From Candidatus Saccharimonadota bacterium (GTDB lineage: Bacteria > Patescibacteriota > Saccharimonadia > Saccharimonadales > Saccharimonadaceae), in assembly GCA_000503915.1 (NCBI GenBank), contig CP006915.1:600001-632000 (forward strand): a stretch of 32,000 nucleotides of DNA, in the 5' to 3' direction. Positions 14,310-29,585 of the stretch are shown here, piece after piece. Numbering within the stretch: the stretch's first letter is position 1; every line of letters starts with the position of its first letter. The position numbers were made by a program, and so were the translations under genes. The notes under the pieces are model-generated. The model was not told where the DNA came from and made no database searches. It saw only the letters and a program-made list of their open reading frames with translations.

Positions 14310-15341
14310 TTATAATCTAAGAATTTCACGAACTTCGGCGGTACTTTTTGTATGCATTAGTTTATCGCGCAGCTCCGCTGCACCCTCAAAGTCACGGACA
14401 TAAATCTTGAAGAAGCGTTTGAGCGGATCAAATTTGCGCGGATACTCTGGTGTATTCCACTGATCATGAAGATCAAGGTGGAAATATAATAGGTCGATAA
14501 GCATTTTTTTGTTCGCAGCTTTTCGACTACGTTCTATCGCAGAGGGCGCTTCGTCAGCTGAAGCTGACTGCACTACGCTTTTACCCTCTACTCCAGAAGT
14601 AGCCGAGCGCTGCTCTACCGCTTGGAAGCAGAATGGATTATGAAACACGCCGCGCCCTATCATGATGCCGTCAACGCCAGTTTCTCTCGCAAGCTGTTCG
14701 CCGTGCGCGCGGTCTTCGATATCGCCGTTGATTGTTAGGAGCGTCTTGGGTGCTATATTGTCGCGCAGCTGTTTGATTTCCGGGATAAGCTCCAGGTGTG
14801 CCGGGACTTTGCTCATCTCTTTTTTGGTACGCAGGTGGATCGTTAGATTGACAATATCTTGGTGAAGAAGATGTGCCAGCCAGTCCTGCCATTCGTCTAA
14901 CTGGCTGTAGCCGAGACGAGTTTTGACGCTGACCGGTAATCCGCTGGTCTTAGCGGCTTCAATCATTTCACTTGCCAGTTCCGGCGTACGGATCATGGCT
15001 GCTCCCCCACCGCTCTTGGTCGCGGAACTATCAGGGCAACCCATGTTGATATCAATGCCATCGTAGCCAAGCTCTTTGCAGTGTAGCGCTAGCTTTGCTA
15101 TCGCTTCGGGTTCTGCACCCCAAAGCTGTGCGATGATCGAATGTTCATCGTCAGTTTTGACGAGCCGCCCACCGATAGCCTTGTCGCCAGCGTGCGTCCA
15201 ACCGGTAGCATTGGTAAATTCAGTAAAATACAGATCTGGCGCGGAGGCTTTTGCTACCACGTGCCGAAAAACCACATCAGTTACTGCCTCCATCGGAGCC
15301 AAAATAAAGAAAGGTCGTGGTAAATCGCGCCAGATATTCAT
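14310..15341 (-). CDS. tRNA-dihydrouridine synthase (Dus family)
   Basis: FILAPMEAVTD, DINMGCPD (catalytic Cys) and a TIM-barrel pattern. Start placed at ATG 15341, because the upstream 30 codons overlap a better small ORF. Confidence 0.85.
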   Translation of the reverse strand: MNIWRDLPRPFFILAPMEAVTDVVFRHVVAKASAPDLYFTEFTNATGWTHAGDKAIGGRLVKTDDEHSIIAQLWGAEPEAIAKLALHCKELGYDGIDINMGCPDSSATKSGGGAAMIRTPELASEMIEAAKTSGLPVSVKTRLGYSQLDEWQDWLAHLLHQDIVNLTIHLRTKKEMSKVPAHLELIPEIKQLRDNIAPKTLLTINGDIEDRAHGEQLARETGVDGIMIGRGVFHNPFCFQAVEQRSATSGVEGKSVVQSASADEAPSAIERSRKAANKKMLIDLLYFHLDLHDQWNTPEYPRKFDPLKRFFKIYVRDFEGAAELRDKLMHTKSTAEVREILRL

Positions 15342-15351
15342 AGAAACAATA

Positions 15352-15531
15352 TTATTCAGCTGCCGGAATGATCTCGGCGCCGTCGCGCTCTTCCCCTTGA
15401 GATTTGTAGAGAATATCAAACAGCGCGGCATCGGAGAGTCCTTGAGCTACTTTTGGCGGCAGCTCAAACTTGAGGTCGCGCAAAACCTCGTCCTGAGTAT
15501 GAATAGCTAGTTGGTCGTGTACCATCGTCAT
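15352..15531 (-). CDS. Hypothetical 59-aa protein (below the ORF-track size cutoff)
   Basis: AAGGAG lies 10 nt upstream of ATG 15531. Product: MTMVHDQLAIHTQDEVLRDLKFELPPKVAQGLSDAALFDILYKSQGEERDGAEIIPAAE*. The stop lies 10 nt before the dus ATG. Confidence 0.5.
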   Translation of the reverse strand: MTMVHDQLAIHTQDEVLRDLKFELPPKVAQGLSDAALFDILYKSQGEERDGAEIIPAAE

Positions 15532-15652
15532 AGTGAGGAGACTCCTTTATGGTATTAAGACATGGGTTGAGTCTTCATAATATCATTTTTTTAGGCAAAA
15601 ATAAAACGCCTCACGCCGGACACGAATCATTATTCATATCGAGTGTGAGACG

Positions 15653-15666
15653 GACAGGAAATAGTG
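15653..15666. repeat. Left copy of a 14-bp perfect inverted repeat (GACAGGAAATAGTG)
   Basis: Exact reverse complement of 16247-16260. An imperfect extension, GTCTC, appears on both sides after a 1-2 nt offset. Confidence 0.8.
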
Positions 15667-15674
15667 GGTCTCAG

Positions 15675-15704
15675 GGGGCGGGATGACCGTAGCCACCCCG
15701 CCCC
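15675..15704 (-). terminator. GC-rich hairpin 6 nt downstream of the 55-aa ORF stop
   Basis: GGGGCGGG (15675-15682) pairs with CCCGCCCC (15697-15704), 8 bp. There is no U tract directly after it. Confidence 0.45.
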
Positions 15705-15710
15705 GCCGGA

Positions 15711-15878
15711 TTACGACTTGGCGCGGCCGTGAATCTTCTGCTCGCCCTTGGACCAGTGGTCGTTGTTACGAACACCTTGGTCGCCACGGTTGTCGTCGAC
15801 CATCCGCTGTTCCTCCGGTGTTCGGGCGGACGGTCGCTTCTTGGCTGCATCGCGAGCATCTTGGATGCTGTACGCCAT
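15711..15878 (-). CDS. Hypothetical 55-aa hydrophilic protein with GC-rich codon usage
   Basis: ATG at 15878 is preceded by GAAAGGGTGA. Product: MAYSIQDARDAAKKRPSARTPEEQRMVDDNRGDQGVRNNDHWSKGEQKIHGRAKS*. Third codon positions are mostly G/C, unlike neighbouring genes. Confidence 0.5.
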   Translation of the reverse strand: MAYSIQDARDAAKKRPSARTPEEQRMVDDNRGDQGVRNNDHWSKGEQKIHGRAKS

Positions 15879-15897
15879 GTGATCACCCTTTCGGGTC

Positions 15898-16157
15898 AAA
15901 ACTCACACGGACGATCCGCGTGAGGCATTGCTGATCAAGCTTGGGCTCCGACGGGCTTTGGGCTTCGGGGTTTCCCATAGCCCGTCGGAGCGGTCTAGCT
16001 GACGGACGAGCCCAGCGCGCAGCGGCAAACAGCCGAGCTCGCCCGTCAGGTCTTGGAGCGGAGCCACCGGACGCATCGCCGGTGGCTCCGCAGAGAAGCG
16101 GGTGTCGAGGGAGACGGGTGACCGATCCATTCCACGGCCATCTTTTACCCACTTCTC
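15898..16157 (-). ncRNA. Array of five consecutive long hairpins (structured RNA or leader) between the tRNA-like element and the small ORF
   Basis: Stems, in plus-strand coordinates: 16093-16103/16147-16157 (11 bp); 16058-16070/16079-16091 (13 bp, perfect); 15999-16011/16037-16049 (13 bp); 15946-15957/15979-15990 (12 bp, perfect); 15902-15910/15916-15924 (9 bp, followed by UUUU). Every non-Watson-Crick position is G-U on the minus strand and A-C on the plus strand. Confidence 0.45.
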
Positions 16158-16159
16158 GG

Positions 16160-16235
16160 TGGGACTGATAGGGTTCGAACCTACGACCTCCACCTAGTAG
16201 TGTGGGTGGTGCTCTTCCTCTTCGGCTACAGCCCC
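16160..16235 (-). tRNA. tRNA-like element, non-canonical; anticodon not assignable
   Basis: GGGGCTG-TA-GCCGAAGAGGAAGAGC-A-CCACC-CACACTACTA-GGTGG-AGGTC-GTAGG-TTCGAAC-CCTAT-CAGTCCC-A. It has a 7-bp acceptor stem, 5-bp anticodon stem, 5-bp T stem and a TTCGAAC T loop. The anticodon loop is 10 nt with no U33 context, the D stem has only 2 pairs, and no CCA is encoded. Confidence 0.6.
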
Positions 16236-16246
16236 TCTAGAGACTG

Positions 16247-16260
16247 CACTATTTCCTGTC
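16247..16260. repeat. Right copy of the 14-bp perfect inverted repeat (CACTATTTCCTGTC)
   Basis: Exact reverse complement of 15653-15666. Lies 11 nt upstream of the 5' end of the tRNA-like element. Confidence 0.8.
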
Positions 16261-16275
16261 AAAATACATTTTGAC
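16258..16275. promoter_or_regulatory. 18-bp palindrome GTCAAAAT-AC-ATTTTGAC (candidate dimeric-protein binding site)
   Basis: Perfect 8+8 inverted repeat with a 2-nt centre. It overlaps the right IR copy by 3 nt. A 2-nt loop is too tight for a favourable RNA hairpin. Confidence 0.4.
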
Positions 16276-16277
16276 GG

Positions 16278-16329
16278 GGAGCGCAGATACCAGCCTGCGA
16301 ATAAGTTCGTAGACTCCTATCCGCGCTCC
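16278..16329 (-). other. Leader hairpin (12-bp stem) between the promoter and the tRNA-like element
   Basis: The minus strand reads GGAGCGCGGATA...TATCTGCGCTCC, with one G-U that would be A-C on the plus strand. An inner CGAA-CTTA-TTCG hairpin is present. Confidence 0.55.
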
Positions 16330-16349
16330 GACCCGCCAAAAGTAGTATT

Positions 16350-16378
16350 ATTTTACTGCAATTGCGCGTATGTGTCAA
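16350..16378 (-). promoter_or_regulatory. Near-consensus sigma70 promoter (TTGACA, 17-nt spacer, TAAAAT)
   Basis: On the minus strand: TTGACA at 16378-16373, 17-nt spacer, TAAAAT at 16355-16350. It starts 1 nt after the helicase stop codon. Predicted start site is near 16343. Confidence 0.65.
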
Positions 16379-16379
16379 C

Positions 16380-19300
16380 TTATTCGACGAGTAAACTATC
16401 TTCAAAATCGAGAATGCCTTGGTAGGTGGCTGCATAGGCGGTACTATCGGGTAGGTCGAGGGCGGTAATTTTACCGTAAATAGCTTCAACCAAACGAGCG
16501 AAGCGGTCTAGCTCTTTTTGATCAAACGTCAGGTCGAGCCGGTATATCGTGCCGTCAGGCGTCGGTTCGACGAACTGGATGCGCCCTTCGCGTACTTCAT
16601 AATTGTGGTAGCTGCGTGAGTTTTCGATTAAAAGCTTATAGAACATCAACTGCTGCCTATATTTGTGCAGCTTGATCTTTTCGTAGTCCGTTTTACCGCG
16701 CCAGGCACTACTCGGCTTGCCGGTCTTGTAGTCAGTTACGACAATTGTTTTAGTTGTCTCATCGATGTCGACCAAGTCGAGTTTGCCAGTCAAGTGCGCG
16801 CTGCCACAGAAGCTCTGCTGGCTGTTAAAATTCTGCTCACTTAATTGCGTGTCAGTGAATGTCTCATAGCATTCGCCTAGGAACGTCTCTAGCGCATCTT
16901 CGCCTCTACGGAGGAACTGTTCGTACTCGTGCGCTGCTAGGTGCATCGAACTAAGCTCTGATTGGAAGTCGTGCAGAATGTCCTCGATTGGTTTTGCCTT
17001 GTGGGTTGCCCGGCGGTGGCTATGTGCACGGTGCAACGCTTGGTGCAGGGCCGAGCCGTAGGCGGCATTCGGGCTGATAGCCTGCGGGAAATGGAGCAGA
17101 TTATTCAGAAGAAAGTGTTGCGGCCCTCCCCTAGTAACGTCAATAAAATTATTTAGGTGCGTTGCGCTGAGCTTGTAGTCGGTCAGTAGCGGTGTGAGTA
17201 ATTCTTTCATGGATGTTTTGGAGAGTGCCAGTAGTGGCTGGCGCCACTCGCGCTCTAAGCTTTCGATCGTTGCAGCGACAGTCTGCTCTACCTCGGGGGA
17301 GCTAACTTCCCAACCGTCGCTATTGAGGAAGCTGGCGCGCAAAGTTGGCTTGTCACTCGTATCGCTCAGGCTGTAGCTAATCGTCAGGGTACTGCGAGCG
17401 CGAGTCATAGCGACAAAGAACAGTCGGAGACGTTCATCGAAACTATCGCCCGCTACCCCGATTGGTAGATTTTCCGGGTAGCCAATCAGGCGGCTACGCA
17501 CACGGACACGCTCGCCCCAGGCTGAATCGACTGCGCCATAGATATAAACGTGGTCAAACTCTAGCCCTTTGGCCTTGTGAGCGGTCATTAGGTTGATAGC
17601 GCCACTTGGCGCATCACTGCGGACGCGGACGCTACTGATCACGCTACCAATTCGCTGGTGAAGCTCGACGAATTCAATAAAATCACTGAGTTTTAGCGTC
17701 TCCATCGGTTTGTATTCGCGGAGTTTTGTGCGGATTGTCCGAACCGCTTCGAGATAGACCAGGTACTGTTCGGGATTATGCGCTCGCCGCTCATCGCTAA
17801 AGAAGTGACCATACAGCGGTGAATGGAACGCTTGGCGGCCTTCACTCTCATCTGGTAATCCGATCAACTCATCGAGTACTGTTTCAAGCGGCAGTGTGAG
17901 ACTGTCGCGGACGCGCTCGGCGAGCCAGTCGTGAAATGGTTTCCAGGCGGGCGCTATGGCGAGCTCTTCTCGCCAACTACTGCGGTGCTTGTACGCAGCG
18001 AGGCTGAGACTCCAGATAGCTTCGGCATCAATTCCCCATGCGGGATGCGCCAAGAGCTCCGGCAAGAGCGCGTCTGCCTCATCGATTCGGCTGGCTGCCG
18101 TCAGTGTGACGACGCGCGTCAAAGTGAGAAGTTGCTGGATAACATCGGCTTCTAGGACGTTGTCGCGACGCTCATAATTGACCGGAATATCGAGGGCATA
18201 AAAATAAGGGATGAGGTTGGTCAGCTCATGATGCCGCCGTGCCAGCACGGCAATATTCGCGCCATCGGTGCCCTCGTCGAGCTGTTGTTTGATGGACGCG
18301 GCGAGGGCACGCCGCTCATCTTCGGGGCGTTCATATTCACGGAGCTGGACGTTGGCATGCTTCGGCGCGTGATGAGCGACGAGAGTTTTATCGATCTCCT
18401 CGACGAAACGCTCCAGACGCTGCTCACCAAGCGTAATAACACTACGGGCTTTCTCGAGGATGAGGTCTGCCGAACGGTAATTATCGGCTAGCGTGACCAG
18501 CTTTACCGACTCATAGCGGTCGCGAAACGAGAGAATGTTGCCGACTTCTGCACCCTGGAAGCTGTAAATTGCCTGATCGTCATCACCCACAACCATGATA
18601 TTCGGTTCGTCGCCCGTCGGGTTGGCAGTGAGGTTATAGAGTATACGCGCCTGCGCCATGTTGGTATCCTGAAATTCGTCAACCATAATGTAGAGATAGC
18701 GTTCCTGGAGGTCAAATCTGAGGCTACTGTTAACCTCCATAGTATGCACAACATTAAGTACCATGTCGTCAAAATCATATAACTCCATTTCCTGCATCTT
18801 CATCAGATACTGGTAATAGATAAAACTTACCGCACGTAGTTTTGCAATGCGACGACGGTCCTTAAAGACAAATTCGCCACGCTCATTCTTCTCTAAGTAA
18901 GTATTTTTCCAGGCAGTAATGGGCTTTGTAGAGTCGGCGTCTATCGCATTTTTAACGGCATGCGCAAGACTACGCGCGAAGACGTCAGAGAGTGGAGTGA
19001 TACCAGGCGGTAACTTTGGCGGTTTTTCATTAGCTATTCTTTGAGCGACATTTGCTAATTTATCAATTGTAGCTTTGGAGATACGATCGGCAAAAATGGC
19101 CGCGACGTCCGGTTCAATTCTATCGAGCGTATGCTCATTGGCATCGAGTACGGCGAGCAGCTCGTCACTCGTAAGGCCGCTCTTTTTTAGATCGGAAATC
19201 GTGCCGAGCGTATCGCGAAGGTGTGTGTAGTCACCGTTCATTTTACTGGCCAGAGGGTTACTGTATTCGAGCGAATCGAAGATCGAATATAGCAGTTCGT

Positions 19301-19658
19301 ACGAGCTCAGTTCGTCGGCGGGTCGAAAAGCAGCGCCTTGGTAAAAGTATTCACCGTATTGGTTGATGATCTCGCTGCCAAAACTGTGGAAGGTATGGAT
19401 AGCGACTTTGTAGGCGGCTGGGCCGATGATCTCGCCGAGTCGCTGGCGCATCGCCGCTGCACCACTTTCGGTAAAGGTAAGACAGAGGATATTTTCTGGA
19501 AGCGTGTCAGTTTTACGGAGAATGTTGGCTGCACGCATACTCAGTAGCTCGGTCTTGCCCGTCCCTGGTCCGGCCACGACCATCAGTGGGCCTTCGATTG
19601 TGTCGACGGCTTCTTTCTGGCGAGCATTTAACTTTTTGTAGCGAGTTGCAAAATCCAT
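16380..19658 (-). CDS. UvrD/PcrA-family helicase fused to a C-terminal RecB-type PD-(D/E)XK nuclease (AddA/RecB-like)
   Basis: Helicase motifs: AGPGTGKT, DEFQDTN, VGDDDQAIYSFQGA, NYRS, TAHKAKGLEFDHVY and FFVAMTRARSTL. Nuclease motifs: GKLDLVDID...VVTDYKTGKP...YRQQLMFYKLL. Start placed at ATG 19658 (MDFATRYKKLNARQKEAV); the track uses TTG 19730. Confidence 0.85.
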   Translation of the reverse strand: MDFATRYKKLNARQKEAVDTIEGPLMVVAGPGTGKTELLSMRAANILRKTDTLPENILCLTFTESGAAAMRQRLGEIIGPAAYKVAIHTFHSFGSEIINQYGEYFYQGAAFRPADELSSYELLYSIFDSLEYSNPLASKMNGDYTHLRDTLGTISDLKKSGLTSDELLAVLDANEHTLDRIEPDVAAIFADRISKATIDKLANVAQRIANEKPPKLPPGITPLSDVFARSLAHAVKNAIDADSTKPITAWKNTYLEKNERGEFVFKDRRRIAKLRAVSFIYYQYLMKMQEMELYDFDDMVLNVVHTMEVNSSLRFDLQERYLYIMVDEFQDTNMAQARILYNLTANPTGDEPNIMVVGDDDQAIYSFQGAEVGNILSFRDRYESVKLVTLADNYRSADLILEKARSVITLGEQRLERFVEEIDKTLVAHHAPKHANVQLREYERPEDERRALAASIKQQLDEGTDGANIAVLARRHHELTNLIPYFYALDIPVNYERRDNVLEADVIQQLLTLTRVVTLTAASRIDEADALLPELLAHPAWGIDAEAIWSLSLAAYKHRSSWREELAIAPAWKPFHDWLAERVRDSLTLPLETVLDELIGLPDESEGRQAFHSPLYGHFFSDERRAHNPEQYLVYLEAVRTIRTKLREYKPMETLKLSDFIEFVELHQRIGSVISSVRVRSDAPSGAINLMTAHKAKGLEFDHVYIYGAVDSAWGERVRVRSRLIGYPENLPIGVAGDSFDERLRLFFVAMTRARSTLTISYSLSDTSDKPTLRASFLNSDGWEVSSPEVEQTVAATIESLEREWRQPLLALSKTSMKELLTPLLTDYKLSATHLNNFIDVTRGGPQHFLLNNLLHFPQAISPNAAYGSALHQALHRAHSHRRATHKAKPIEDILHDFQSELSSMHLAAHEYEQFLRRGEDALETFLGECYETFTDTQLSEQNFNSQQSFCGSAHLTGKLDLVDIDETTKTIVVTDYKTGKPSSAWRGKTDYEKIKLHKYRQQLMFYKLLIENSRSYHNYEVREGRIQFVEPTPDGTIYRLDLTFDQKELDRFARLVEAIYGKITALDLPDSTAYAATYQGILDFEDSLLVE

Positions 19659-19788
19659 ACTGTTACTATTGTACCGCAACCTGTCATCGTGGGTGTTCAA
19701 AACCGTCTTATAGTGGTGTTTCGTAGACAAATACCCTATGAATATGGTTTGGTATCGTTCTTACTACCTAAAGTGATACAATAACGAT

Positions 19789-20277
19789 ATGAACGACAAT
19801 GTCTATGACGATATGGCACTCGAGCATATTGCCAAGGAGAAATTCGGCATGACCGTAGATATTGATCATGTGATCGCCCGCAATGTGCCGGTGAGTCATG
19901 TGGCGACAGCGACGCTTTTTTTAACGAGTAAGAAGCAGTTACTGCTCTATATCAACGCCCATTCCAAATTGCTCCTCGGTGATGTGAAAAAGATCGTGAC
20001 GCGCATGGGGTTGGTGCCAGAGCTATTTGTGCCACCAAAAGGTCAGCCGCAGTATTTTGATGAGATCGGTCGCGAACATTATAAAAAAGTATTTCCTGGC
20101 CTTTCACACCCGAGCAAAGAAGATATTATTTATTATCGTACGCTTGCACCGTACAACCCTGCCCTCGTGCAGATTGCCGAAGTTAAAAACGGCGAAGTCC
20201 GTCAGTTTGATACTGATGCTTCGAGCGGCTGGCGCGTAGCGACGAAATTTGCGTATCGGCGAATTAAGACAAGCTAA
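19789..20277 (+). CDS. Hypothetical protein (162 aa), family not recognised
   Basis: Clean ORF. Extended -10 TGaTACAAT (19774-19782) ends 6 nt before the ATG. Overlaps the convergent gene by 4 nt. Confidence 0.6.
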   Translation: MNDNVYDDMALEHIAKEKFGMTVDIDHVIARNVPVSHVATATLFLTSKKQLLLYINAHSKLLLGDVKKIVTRMGLVPELFVPPKGQPQYFDEIGREHYKKVFPGLSHPSKEDIIYYRTLAPYNPALVQIAEVKNGEVRQFDTDASSGWRVATKFAYRRIKTS

Positions 20278-21566
20278 ATCTTATCAAGTACGACGAGGTG
20301 TTCGATATGCGGCGTACACGGAAAAAAGTTGTAACCTTGGTGTGCGCGGATACCGTATTTTTCAGCGAGTAAGGCAACGTCACGGGCTTGAGTGACAGGA
20401 TTGCAGCTGAGGTAGATGATGCGTCCTGGCTGAACCTCAAGTAGACGGTCGATGACGGCTTGATGCAAACCAGCGCGGGGCGGGTCGAGAATAACGGTTG
20501 CGTCGCTGGTAAGGTATTCGACGGCCTGCTCACTGGCAGCATGAACCGCTACAGCGTTGCTACGAAGCGCAGCGATATTGCGCTTCATTTCGCGCACAGC
20601 ATGCTCGTCAACTTCGACCAGCGTCGTATGCTCGCTCCCTATCGTGAGGCCAATTGTACCAACACCACTGTACATATCAACCGTTGGCGTAGATGGCTCA
20701 AGCCAGGCTTTCATATCTTCAAGTGCTCGCTCATAGAGCGGGAGGTTCACCTGAAAGAACCCCTCGGTTGCGTAAGAGAACGCCACGCCGCGAATTTCAT
20801 CGTGTAACACCACGTCGCCGTAAGCGGCTAAACGCTTGGTGATACGACTTGCCGGGCTGCGCGGGTCGGAGTAGATGACTTCGCCACCTTGTGCTGGCAA
20901 TGTAGCCGCCTCCATTTCGCTGATATACGTTTTATCCTCTTCCTTGACGTAGAGCTGCCAGGCGCAGTTGCCCTCCCGGTCGCAGCGAATCAGGAGGGTC
21001 TTTAAATCGCGAGCTTCGAGTGGTTTAGTACGGAGTAGATTGCGAATAGCGCGAGCCAGTATATTGATTGTCTCGTGCGCCAGTGAAGTTCCTTCTAGCG
21101 GAATTTTCCCCTTACTACCGCGTCGAAAGAATGCAAGCTCCAGCTGCTCTGCTTCTCCGTCCCAGTACCAGCTAAACTCAACTTTGTTGCGGTACCCGAA
21201 CCGTCGGCCGTCGGTATAGACTTCGATTGCTTGAGGCAGAACAATATCATGCAACTCAAAGGCTTCTTCAATCAAGGCGGCTTTGTAGTGTGTTTCTGCT
21301 TCGGGTGTCATGATTTGCCACGGGCTGGTGGAAAGATAGCTTTCGGAATCTATTGGCGCAATACGTTCATCGCTCGGTATGGTCACATCGACGACAATTC
21401 CCTCGATAAGTTTTGAGCGTTTTTTAGTAATTTTAACTGCGACGGTTTCACTCGGCAGTCCGCCCCAGACAAATAATTTCCGACCATCAGGATACTGGCC
21501 GAGTGCTTGCCCGCCACCAACAATTTTGTCGAGCTTTGTCTCGACGATTTCATCTTGTTTACTCAT
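20274..21566 (-). CDS. RNA (uracil-5-)-methyltransferase, RlmD/TrmA family, with an N-terminal TRAM-like domain
   Basis: FFQVN, DPPRAGL (SAM motif IV), YLSCNPVTQARD (catalytic Cys) and a C-terminal FPCTPHIEHLVVL. Confidence 0.85.
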   Translation of the reverse strand: MSKQDEIVETKLDKIVGGGQALGQYPDGRKLFVWGGLPSETVAVKITKKRSKLIEGIVVDVTIPSDERIAPIDSESYLSTSPWQIMTPEAETHYKAALIEEAFELHDIVLPQAIEVYTDGRRFGYRNKVEFSWYWDGEAEQLELAFFRRGSKGKIPLEGTSLAHETINILARAIRNLLRTKPLEARDLKTLLIRCDREGNCAWQLYVKEEDKTYISEMEAATLPAQGGEVIYSDPRSPASRITKRLAAYGDVVLHDEIRGVAFSYATEGFFQVNLPLYERALEDMKAWLEPSTPTVDMYSGVGTIGLTIGSEHTTLVEVDEHAVREMKRNIAALRSNAVAVHAASEQAVEYLTSDATVILDPPRAGLHQAVIDRLLEVQPGRIIYLSCNPVTQARDVALLAEKYGIRAHQGYNFFPCTPHIEHLVVLDKI

Positions 21567-29510: not shown

Positions 29511-29585
29511 TGGCTGGGCCGGCAGGATTCGAACCTGCGAATGCCAGGACCAAAACCTGGTGCCTTACCACTTGGCCACGGCCCA
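29511..29585 (-). tRNA. tRNA-Gln (anticodon UUG), CCA encoded
   Basis: TGGGCCG-TG-GCCAAGTGGTAAGGC-A-CCAGG-TTTTGGT-CCTGG-CATTC-GCAGG-TTCGAAT-CCTGC-CGGCCCA-G-CCA. U1-A72 and G73 are as in bacterial tRNA-Gln. TGaTACAAT promoter element at 29643-29635. Confidence 0.93.

Follow-up and report, generated by a model that had tools for sequence, protein, structure and literature searches.

Introduction

What role do five long, closely spaced hairpins play in a streamlined bacterial genome, and are they palindromes of the DNA or helices of an RNA? The question is raised by a stretch of 32,000 nucleotides (nt) from Candidatus Saccharibacteria RAAC3_TM7_1 (contig CP006915.1, positions 600,001 to 632,000), which is referred to here as the window and in whose coordinates all positions are given unless a locus is named. 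An initial annotation of this stretch, made from the letters alone, described five back-to-back hairpins on the minus strand (H1 to H5) that directly follow a tRNA-like element. The analysis presented here shows that these hairpins are not the self-contained array that was described, but the interior of a larger unit which is closed by a long-range helix, the clamp. The interpretation favoured here, to which we assign a probability of roughly 55%, is that the five hairpins are RNA helices inside a clamped predicted transcript of ~747 nt from the minus strand, with the tRNA-like domain and H1 to H3 forming a functional RNA module and the remaining hairpins serving as leader structures of a small-protein gene.

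The genome of RAAC3_TM7_1 comprises 845,464 bp, its GC content is 49% and its genes are separated by 72 bp on average, and the paper that describes it makes no mention of a hairpin or tRNA-like element (PMC3812714). Despite this streamlining the unit keeps ~580 nt of non-coding sequence, and DNA without a function would be unlikely to persist there.

Results

Closure of the hairpin region by a long-range helix

The clamp pairs GACAGGAAAUAGUG with its exact complement CACUAUUUCCUGUC, which gives 14 base pairs (bp) that are prolonged inwards by a 5-bp GUCUC/GAGAC extension, and the duplex has an energy of -29.8 kcal/mol (coordinates of all features are collected in Table 1). Within the window an exact 14-nt inverted repeat is found as this pair only, with 0.12 expected by chance. 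The tRNA-like domain, H1 to H5 and an open reading frame (ORF) of 55 amino acids (aa) are all enclosed by the clamp in one large multibranch domain.

Conservation was assessed in 160 loci, mostly from Saccharibacteria and cited below by their L numbers, which were collected by a scan of species-representative genomes for the helicase gene upstream of the unit and a scan of metagenomes for the dihydrouridine synthase (Dus) gene downstream of it. A first BLASTN search of the unit against the helicase-anchored loci returned no match, and the homology emerged through synteny, ARAGORN and motif searches and later through permissive BLAST, which, when the unit was compared with all loci, matched the tRNA-like domain with H1, the ORF and the 3′ module, and nothing for 15898-16091. 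In ~25 Saccharibacteria contigs the interval between this helicase gene and dus holds homologous units. An nhmmer profile of the 3′ module, which consists of the 3′ strand of the clamp and the terminator, matched ~25 loci, and each match has the orientation of helicase and dus, except for one weak palindromic self-match in L084.

The clamp is recovered by RNAduplex in 17 of 22 homologous units, where it spans ~400-960 nt. In an ungapped alignment of 14 distinct helices, double changes occur in 11 of the 14 pairs and 94.9% of the cells are paired; this covariation was reached by none of 500 shuffles, and a shift of the pairing register reduces pairing to 32-51%. The alignments of the clamp, H1 and H3 were assembled by hand from helix arms of equal length, while MAFFT alignments, which were out of structural register, were left out of the covariation counts. 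The pattern of compensatory change shows the clamp to be under structural selection.

Modular composition of the homologous units

The homologous units occur in three arrangements. In the first, a single composite unit holds the tRNA-like domain, the hairpins and the ORF in one clamp (the window, L108 and L095). In the second, two clamped units with a promoter and a terminator of their own are arranged in tandem (L086 and L093), the first with a small ORF and the second with the tRNA-like domain and H1 to H3 and without an ORF preceded by a Shine-Dalgarno sequence (SD). An ORF-less unit with the tRNA-like domain and H1 to H3 is also present in L096 and L099, whose contigs do not reach far enough upstream for a first unit to be visible, and the tandem layout recurs in L088 with a non-coding second unit that lacks both the tRNA-like and the H1 to H3 modules. 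The third arrangement consists of hairpins and ORF without a tRNA-like domain. Clamped units that bear the tRNA-like domain and H1 to H3 in the absence of an SD-preceded ORF (L086b, L093, L096 and L099) indicate that this module can exist as a non-coding RNA, and on this comparison of loci it is probably a functional RNA module.

The tRNA-like domain

The domain is reported by ARAGORN as tRNA-??? and scores 42.2 bits with the Rfam tRNA model (RF00005), for which the gathering score is 29. The acceptor, D and T arms of a cloverleaf are present, with covariation in 18 of 21 pairs among 21 homologues, and this covariation shows the cloverleaf to be under structural selection. Other attributes of a decoding tRNA are absent from the copy in the window: its D stem has only two standard pairs, a 10-nt loop takes the place of the 7-nt anticodon loop with U33, and its 3′ end reads ACCG, without the CCA that is encoded by the genuine tRNAs of the genome, one of which, the tRNA-Gln at 29511-29585, ends in GCCA. 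No member of the tRNA-shaped family encodes CCA. The “anticodon” loops of the homologues vary in length from 3 nt to over 10 nt, G33, closed tetraloop stems or insertions of 30-45 nt occur in some, and the “anticodons” themselves are arbitrary (aaa, aat, atg, agc).

Each locus has 1-3 copies, which always occupy the interval from helicase to dus in Saccharibacteria. Of 80 metagenome loci ~30 have such elements ahead of dus, several genomes have them past the helicase, and further elements lie at 2191-2498 of L101, 2148-2550 of L139, 9737-9843 of L004 and 9406-9524 of L005. Covariance-model matches were obtained in many loci, and those in the interval between helicase and dus share without exception the orientation of these two genes. 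In 20 of 30 elements a helix of at least 6 bp begins ~1-6 nt past the 3′ end of the cloverleaf; in the window the outer stem of H1 begins 3 nt past the discriminator base.

The degenerate D arm, the arbitrary “anticodon” loops and a number of hairpins that varies between lineages would all be expected if the region were a functionless, decaying remnant of a tRNA gene cluster and its trailers. This explanation is highly improbable, since the acceptor, D and T arms have been kept by compensatory changes across lineages whose helicases are ~46-62% identical, since the clamp, the terminator and the loop of H3 are conserved, and since a streamlined genome is unlikely to retain DNA of no function.

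Conservation of individual hairpins

The most informative of the hairpins is H3, in which stem and loop behave in opposite ways. Its apical loop consists of 15 nt, UGUUUGCCGCUGCGC (16017-16031, minus strand); L086, L093, L096, L099 and L108 have exactly its core UUGCCGCUGCGCG and no more than one changed base in the full loop, yet the stems of these five lineages differ almost everywhere. In the ungapped five-sequence alignment, double changes occur in 14 of the 16 stem pairs, and 88.8% of the cells are paired, compared to 54.7% in shuffles; none of 500 shuffles reached the observed covariation, and the signal collapses when the pairing register is slid. These comparisons show the stem to be under structural selection and the loop to be under sequence selection. 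A loop that stays nearly invariant on stems that vary freely speaks for recognition by sequence and not for structural ballast. A resemblance of the loop to tRNA D-arm sequences was discarded because it is not conserved. A complement of the loop, GCAGCGGC, lies upstream in the L093 unit (~222-232) and is absent from the window.

The divergence of the H3 stems also bears on whether the hairpin region might simply be protein-coding. Two ORFs of 89 and 96 aa are present on the minus strand (15883-16152 and 15903-16193), and automated gene calling in a public assembly placed a 57-aa gene at 15903-16076. The candidate ORFs are not preceded by an SD, however, and have no match in Pfam, and their products are rich in Arg, Pro, Gly and Ala, as expected of GC-rich non-coding DNA. 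The homologous H3 stems differ at nearly every position and yet stay paired, which is the signature of an RNA helix and not of a protein, and the likelihood that the region is coding is practically nil.

A stem homologous to H1 (GAAGCGAGU/ACUCGUUUC and variants) follows the tRNA-like element at a distance of 1-4 nt in L086, L093, L095, L096, L099 and L108, and permissive BLAST finds the segment comprising the tRNA-like domain and H1 to be similar to L108, L093 and L095. In the homologues 90% of the cells are paired, and one position alternates between G-U, A-U and G-C, which fits selection at the RNA level on the minus strand. The alignment shows that H1 is conserved. Compensatory changes in homologues, on which the initial annotation had let its case for RNA structure depend, were thus found for H3 and, in the form of wobble alternation, for H1, but not for H4 or H5.

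Strand of the folded structure

Folding of the minus strand yields the five consecutive hairpins that had been described (15902-16157). The statement that almost no unpaired spacer separates them is accurate from H1 to H4, where the spacers are 1, 8 and 7 nt, but not for H5, which is preceded by 20 nt. The segment 15890-16345, for which the initial annotation had suggested such a calculation, folds on the minus strand with -231.6 kcal/mol and a z-score of -9.2 relative to dinucleotide shuffles, far beyond chance. The z-score of the plus strand is -9.0. Since both strands fold nearly alike, palindromy alone cannot identify the strand on which selection acts, and the question rests on the wobble pairs.

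The initial annotation had claimed that the mismatches in the stems are all G-U on the minus strand only, and this holds at the positions in H1 (U16151.G16099), H5 (G15919.U15907) and H3 (three in the main stem and two near the loop); in the five stems, none of the non-Watson-Crick positions is an A.C mismatch on the minus strand. When each hairpin is folded on each strand, H1 to H5 reach a combined -141.6 kcal/mol on the minus strand, compared to -125.3 on the plus strand, with H3 alone at -36.9 and -24.3 kcal/mol, and the sums for the ten local hairpins of the unit are -261.0 and -223.9. Separate folds of the two strands contain 18 G-U pairs for the minus strand and 8 for the plus strand. 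The further claim that six of six wobbles are consistent with one strand is borne out as an asymmetry in energies and counts, but is slightly overstated, because the leader hairpin at 16253-16280 carries a C.A mismatch on the minus strand and is less stable there (-8.2 kcal/mol) than on the plus strand (-13.0). In the full-length fold this segment pairs instead with the 5′ end of the transcript.

These results can be set against the possibility that the structures are palindromes or inverted repeats of the DNA, such as elements of the REP or MITE kind, an invertible segment bounded by the 14-bp repeats, or hairpins formed in replication. The near equality of the two z-scores is compatible with such an origin, as is a clamp that forms a perfect 14-bp inverted repeat around a variable interior and whose mismatches in the homologues have no strand bias. 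An origin of this kind should nevertheless be regarded as exceedingly improbable. The wobble and energy asymmetry gives the minus strand an advantage of 37 kcal/mol. Each hairpin and the 14-nt inverted repeat occur only once in the 32-kb window, and neither the dispersed copies nor the strand-neutral mismatches of REP, BIME or MITE elements are seen there. The interior has one orientation at every locus, as judged from the matches of the 3′ module and the tRNA-like domain (the self-match in L084 aside); the position is fixed between the same two genes; and none of the neighbouring genes examined is a recombinase. A link to phages or mobile elements was also considered and rejected: two scans of viral contigs gave 7 and more than 120 exact short matches, with no extended similarity and no tRNA-like elements, and these matches are attributable to chance.

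The predicted transcript

The whole predicted transcript (15597-16343, 747 nt) folds with -380.9 kcal/mol (z = -11.4), and the clamp, the five hairpins and the terminator are held by both the minimum free energy structure and the centroid. The GC content of this unit is 59.5% overall and 64% in the hairpin region, compared to 50.6% for the window, and it lies between 52 and 65% in the homologous units. The frame of the transcript is supplied by a promoter and the conserved terminator. The promoter matches the sigma-70 consensus at 11 of 12 positions and directly follows the stop codon of the helicase gene, which places the predicted start of transcription near 16343 on the minus strand; TTGAC-N17/18-TAnAAT is read by eye at the equivalent place in L001, L012, L014, L086, L096, L086a, L085 and L098.

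In the full-length fold the first nucleotides of the transcript, ACUUUUGGCGGG, are paired with CCCGUCAAAAU, so that the 5′ end is base-paired, and L086a has a leader of the same type as the 5′ leader hairpin of the window. As a separate observation, CCCGUCAAAAU (within 16253-16343, minus strand) can pair alternatively with the 5′ end of the transcript (AUUUUGGCGGG) or with the following AUUUUGACAGG, and the latter pairing overlaps the 5′ strand of the clamp, where it may constitute a switch between alternative pairings at the base of the clamp. Leaders of a second type (L088, L093, L096 and L108) likewise repeat GGAAUAG and CUAUUCC segments.

The small-protein gene and the 3′ end of the unit

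The 55-aa ORF was matched only to itself by a word-indexed protein search, and only to identical copies by an exact-protein look-up, but an exhaustive HMMER search of 1.84 billion representative proteins found 12 relatives of ~50 aa. In their alignment A, P and R residues are invariant and a VRN motif is present, with the consensus ..ARDAA.K.P..RT..EQ..VD.N.G.Q.VRN.DHEA.R.QRI.G, and the product is hydrophilic and charged. An AlphaFold model of the 55-aa product is a three-helix bundle with a mean pLDDT of 89; no sequence match to the family was found in Pfam, NCBIfam or the PDB, and no Foldseek match in the PDB. Members of the family are encoded at the same position in L083 and L085. Judged by this conservation, the ORF is a genuine gene of a conserved small-protein family.

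Other cassettes carry unrelated mini-ORFs. In L095 and L108 they encode Cys-rich peptides of ~50 aa with CxxCxGxG motifs that resemble the DnaJ zinc finger, and a further family has a tail like GSRGNRAR.AFKGKK. The mini-ORFs of L095 (~2413-2570), L108 (~2438-2593) and L086 (~1773-1928) are preceded by an extended SD of the GGAGGUGAU type which is buried in a short hairpin. A CCAAG linker motif, present seven times in the unit with 0.9 expected, was not counted as a feature because five of the seven copies are Lys codons in the ORF.

The SD of the window is similarly occluded: the probability that its core is unpaired is 0.17, compared to 0.11-0.47 in 10 homologous units, and it is predicted to be mostly paired in all 11. 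This burial of the SD in every unit examined is one of the observations that would be accounted for if the hairpins and the tRNA-like domain were purely a cis-acting 5′ untranslated region of the 55-aa gene, which stabilizes the messenger RNA (mRNA) and tunes its translation. The position of the module between the promoter and an SD-preceded ORF in the window, L108 and L095 would be accounted for as well, as would the enclosure of leader and ORF together by the clamp. An exclusively cis-acting role is nonetheless unlikely, if far from negligible, given that the tRNA-like domain and H1 to H3 recur in the clamped units without an SD-preceded ORF, that ORF-bearing units without the module exist (L001, L085 and L087), and that the loop of H3 is near-invariant on stems that vary freely.

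The initial annotation had also regarded H5 as a terminator or attenuator just before the small ORF. The stem and the ensuing UUUU are there, but the tract has four U only, the hairpin is not conserved, and relatives have SD-burying hairpins without a U tract at this position. As a terminator H5 would have 10 bp, -14.9 kcal/mol and only 4 U, and it was left uncalled by a consensus scan, which also missed the conserved terminator. In an attenuator mechanism, H5 and perhaps other hairpins would stop most transcripts ahead of the ORF, and regulated read-through would reach the ORF, the downstream small gene and dus. The GC-rich 10-bp stem with its UUUU immediately upstream of the SD is suited to such a mechanism, and the non-coding module of the relatives has a terminator of its own. 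Besides the short tract and the absence of conservation, however, relatives with the same ORF family have anti-SD:SD hairpins that lack U tracts there, and the 3′ strand of the clamp, which lies downstream of the ORF, covaries with the 5′ strand, which implies that full-length transcripts matter. Attenuation is accordingly considered improbable.

Beyond the ORF the unit ends with a GC-rich hairpin, the 3′ strand of the clamp and the intrinsic terminator. On the plus strand a weak promoter-like site (15557-15586, 9 of 12 positions) would drive transcription antisense to the terminator and a small ORF.

Neighbouring genes

The genes that flank the unit are listed in Table 1, and beyond the array of helicase, unit and dus lie ATP synthase genes and a pilin gene. 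Between the terminator of the cassette and dus there is a further small ORF (~15355-15600, minus strand) that starts near 15531 after the SD AAAGGAG and has 59 aa in the public assembly; its leader contains a small hairpin, AAGAC...GUCUU, whose counterpart in L096 is AAGAU...AUCUU. The Dus gene and a U5-methyltransferase-like gene at 20274-21566 (minus strand) are two genes of tRNA or rRNA modification in the vicinity of the tRNA-like RNA.

Table 1. Positions of the features of the clamped unit and of its flanking genes in the window (energies in kcal/mol)
Feature	Position	Strand	Remarks
Predicted transcript	~16343 to 15597	-	~747 nt; promoter and conserved terminator frame; contains the five hairpins
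Sigma-70-type promoter	16350-16378	-	TTGACA-17 nt-TAAAAT; 11/12 consensus positions; directly after helicase stop codon
5′ leader hairpin	16266-16343 (core 16278-16329)	-	-30.4 (minus) vs -26.1 (plus); 2 G-U on minus
Clamp, 5′ strand	16240-16260	-	GACAGGAAAUAGUG (16247-16260); inner extension GUCUC (16240-16244)
tRNA-like domain	16158-16235	-	acceptor and T arm, weak D arm; “anticodon” arm with 5-bp stem and 10-nt loop
H1	16093-16157	-	outer stem 16147-16157 with 16093-16103, 11 bp; encloses small hairpin ~16121-16138
H2	16058-16091	-	perfect 13-bp stem; 15 pairs with two apical ones
H3	15999-16049	-	18-bp main stem with three G-U; two more G-U near loop
H4	15945-15991	-	perfect 13-bp stem, A.A mismatch, then 4 bp
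H5	15902-15924	-	10-bp stem with one G-U, then UUUU; -14.9 (minus) vs -11.4 (plus)
Extended SD	15879-15896	-	GAAAGGGUGAUC; half buried in hairpin ACCC-GAAA-GGGU
55-aa ORF	15711-15878	-	RAAC3_TM7C00001G0692; identical protein record
GC-rich hairpin after ORF	15672-15707	-	three G-U; -30.3 (minus) vs -20.8 (plus)
Clamp, 3′ strand	15653-15672	-	GAGAC (15668-15672), C, then CACUAUUUCCUGUC (15653-15666)
Intrinsic terminator hairpin	15597-15652	-	CGUCUCACAC...GUGAGGCG, then UUUUAUUUUU; -23.9 (minus) vs -15.1 (plus); 4 G-U
UvrD/PD-(D/E)XK helicase-nuclease gene	16380-19730	-	upstream neighbour of unit
Dihydrouridine synthase (Dus) gene	14310-15431	-	downstream neighbour, past a further small ORF

Discussion

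Weight of the evidence

The proposal of the initial annotation that selection acts on an RNA structure of the minus strand agrees with a promoter and a terminator on that strand and with the wobble asymmetry, and it is upheld for H1 and H3. The strand of the structure, the helices and their enclosure by the clamp can be taken as established, as can the occurrence of the module without an SD-preceded ORF in sister lineages. Several observations weigh against the favoured interpretation. Besides the ability of the plus strand to fold about as well, the single mismatches in the homologous clamps are divided equally between 3 G.U and 3 A.C on the minus strand, so that the clamp by itself would be equally compatible with an inverted repeat at the DNA level. 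The hand-assembled alignments favour the structure under test. The covariation of H1 is weak, with 2 double changes and a score that 19 of 500 shuffles reach, and H2 has positional counterparts with a related CCGG(A/U)GG core in L086, L093, L096 and L099 by eye comparison only. Permissive BLAST over the 160 related loci detected no homologue of H4 or H5, and selection on these two hairpins is therefore not demonstrated. Within the window, matches to GCGCAGCGGCAAAC, the complement of the H3 loop, do not exceed chance. The units without a tRNA-like domain (L001, L083, L085, L087 and L098) are numerous enough to indicate that the domain is not essential to the cassette. The ends of the transcript, its processing and its expression are predictions from sequence.

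Proposed mechanism

The interpretation of the hairpins as RNA helices within a clamped transcript divides them into two modules. The first, which consists of the tRNA-like domain and H1 to H3, would be a functional, nuclease-resistant RNA scaffold. Its tRNA-shaped domain, which lacks an anticodon and a CCA but has intact acceptor and T arms, is probably recognised by tRNA-processing enzymes, and it may serve enzymes that recognise tRNA, among them RNase P, RNase Z and the CCA-adding enzyme, as a substrate or a decoy, while H3 would display its near-invariant 15-nt loop to a putative sequence-specific partner. Cleavage at the CCA-less 3′ end of the domain would turn H1 into a 5′-terminal stem, which is an arrangement that protects bacterial mRNAs from 5′-end-dependent decay, and H1 may in this way protect the RNA downstream of it, with the clamp and the terminator protecting the 3′ end. 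The second module comprises H4, H5 and the SD-burying hairpin, which would be lineage-specific leader structures upstream of the small-protein gene that probably damp or condition the translation of the 55-aa ORF.

Comparison with known RNAs

The initial annotation recognised no known RNA family in the hairpins, and a scan with the covariance models of Rfam 15 is in agreement, since it gives tRNA alone in the window and in 18 homologous loci. OLE, raiA, RtT, ROSE and fourU have no Rfam match; tmRNA, RNase P, SRP, 6S, YrlA, ROOL and GOLLD were rejected for want of a covariance-model match and because their layout does not fit (the cloverleaf is contiguous, while that of tmRNA is split); and the best match other than tRNA, Pseudomonas P17, scores 22 bits where the threshold is 45 and covers a GC hairpin only. 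The RNA array of type III toxin-antitoxin systems was likewise dismissed, as the hairpins are unrelated in sequence and share only chance direct repeats of 10-13 nt. Full-text literature searches gave no paper that links Saccharibacteria or other bacteria of the Candidate Phyla Radiation (CPR) with tRNA-like RNAs. The unit belongs to none of the known systems with which it was compared, but several of them offer parallels to how it might work.

One parallel is given by the tRNA-like processing signals that occur in longer transcripts, as in mammalian MALAT1/mascRNA, mitochondrial tRNA punctuation, and the bacterial tRNA-mRNA co-transcripts thrU-tufB and tyrT-tpr/rtT RNA. Like mascRNA and the tRNA co-transcripts, the unit contains an embedded cloverleaf with acceptor and T arms, the following RNA starts right after the discriminator, and new ends would be created by RNase P and RNase Z. 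The unit differs from these signals in that its domain has no proper anticodon loop, is variably present, and lies inside a clamp with an array of GC-rich hairpins, and in that processing is only predicted. YrlA, a bacterial Y RNA and partner of Rsr/Ro with a module that mimics tRNA, resembles the unit as a non-coding RNA that imitates the D and T arms without decoding and that has a long stem formed from distant segments. The topology is opposite, however, since in the unit the open acceptor stem runs on into the flanks, and it is the “anticodon” arm that is closed. Among the neighbouring genes examined (helicase-nuclease, Dus, pilin and ATP synthase, rather than the whole window) there is no rsr.

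Large ornate bacterial RNAs of unassigned function, such as ROOL, GOLLD, OLE and raiA, are often found near tRNAs. They share with the unit a length of several hundred nt, many covarying helices, restriction to a lineage and an association with tRNA, but the interior of the unit is modular, poorly conserved and able to carry small ORFs, its conserved parts being the clamp, the terminator, H1, H3 and the tRNA-like domain. The hok-family mRNAs, which belong to type I toxin-antitoxin systems, are characterised by a long-range fold-back pairing of their 5′ and 3′ regions. The unit is similar in being a structured mRNA for a product of ~50 aa, in the pairing of its 5′ and 3′ regions and in the sequestration of the SD; it is dissimilar in that the product is hydrophilic and helical rather than a membrane peptide, in that no gene for an antisense RNA was recognised, the weak site at 15557-15586 being the only promoter-like signal seen on the plus strand, and in that its position is fixed and syntenic, not mobile or on a plasmid. 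Two further resemblances concern generic mechanisms, not family membership: as with the 5′ stabiliser hairpins of ompA, aprE and ermC, the 5′ end of the transcript is base-paired and H1 would be 5′-terminal after processing, and as in the ROSE and fourU thermometers a short, weak hairpin masks the SD.

Significance

The five hairpins are thus best described as part of a larger RNA cassette, modular and clamped, which is undescribed and confined to Saccharibacteria and whose biochemical function is putative. A more specific proposal, which is held tentatively and at somewhat less than even odds, is that the locus represents an undescribed class of Saccharibacteria-specific clamped cassette RNAs of ~0.45-0.95 kb, in which interchangeable modules are held in a covarying clamp by a terminator, and which would act as ribonucleoprotein scaffolds or decoys for tRNA enzymes, with some of them serving also as mRNAs and so having a dual function. 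On this same tentative proposal, the modules would include 1-3 tRNA-shaped domains without an anticodon, GC-rich hairpins, one of them with the near-invariant 15-nt loop, and mini-ORFs of at least three unrelated families.

Saccharibacteria and other CPR bacteria have very small genomes with little space between genes, and to our knowledge almost no non-coding RNAs have been characterised in them beyond the universal ones. The unit joins a tRNA mimic that is incapable of decoding, a near-invariant loop on a covarying stem and a long-range clamp, and its analysis rescues a conserved family of ~50-aa proteins from the orphan status that it has in routine annotation. If the unit functions as an RNA, it would add a new class of structured RNA, from a phylum that has been little explored, and it would provide a natural bacterial example of a tRNA-shaped scaffold or processing signal.

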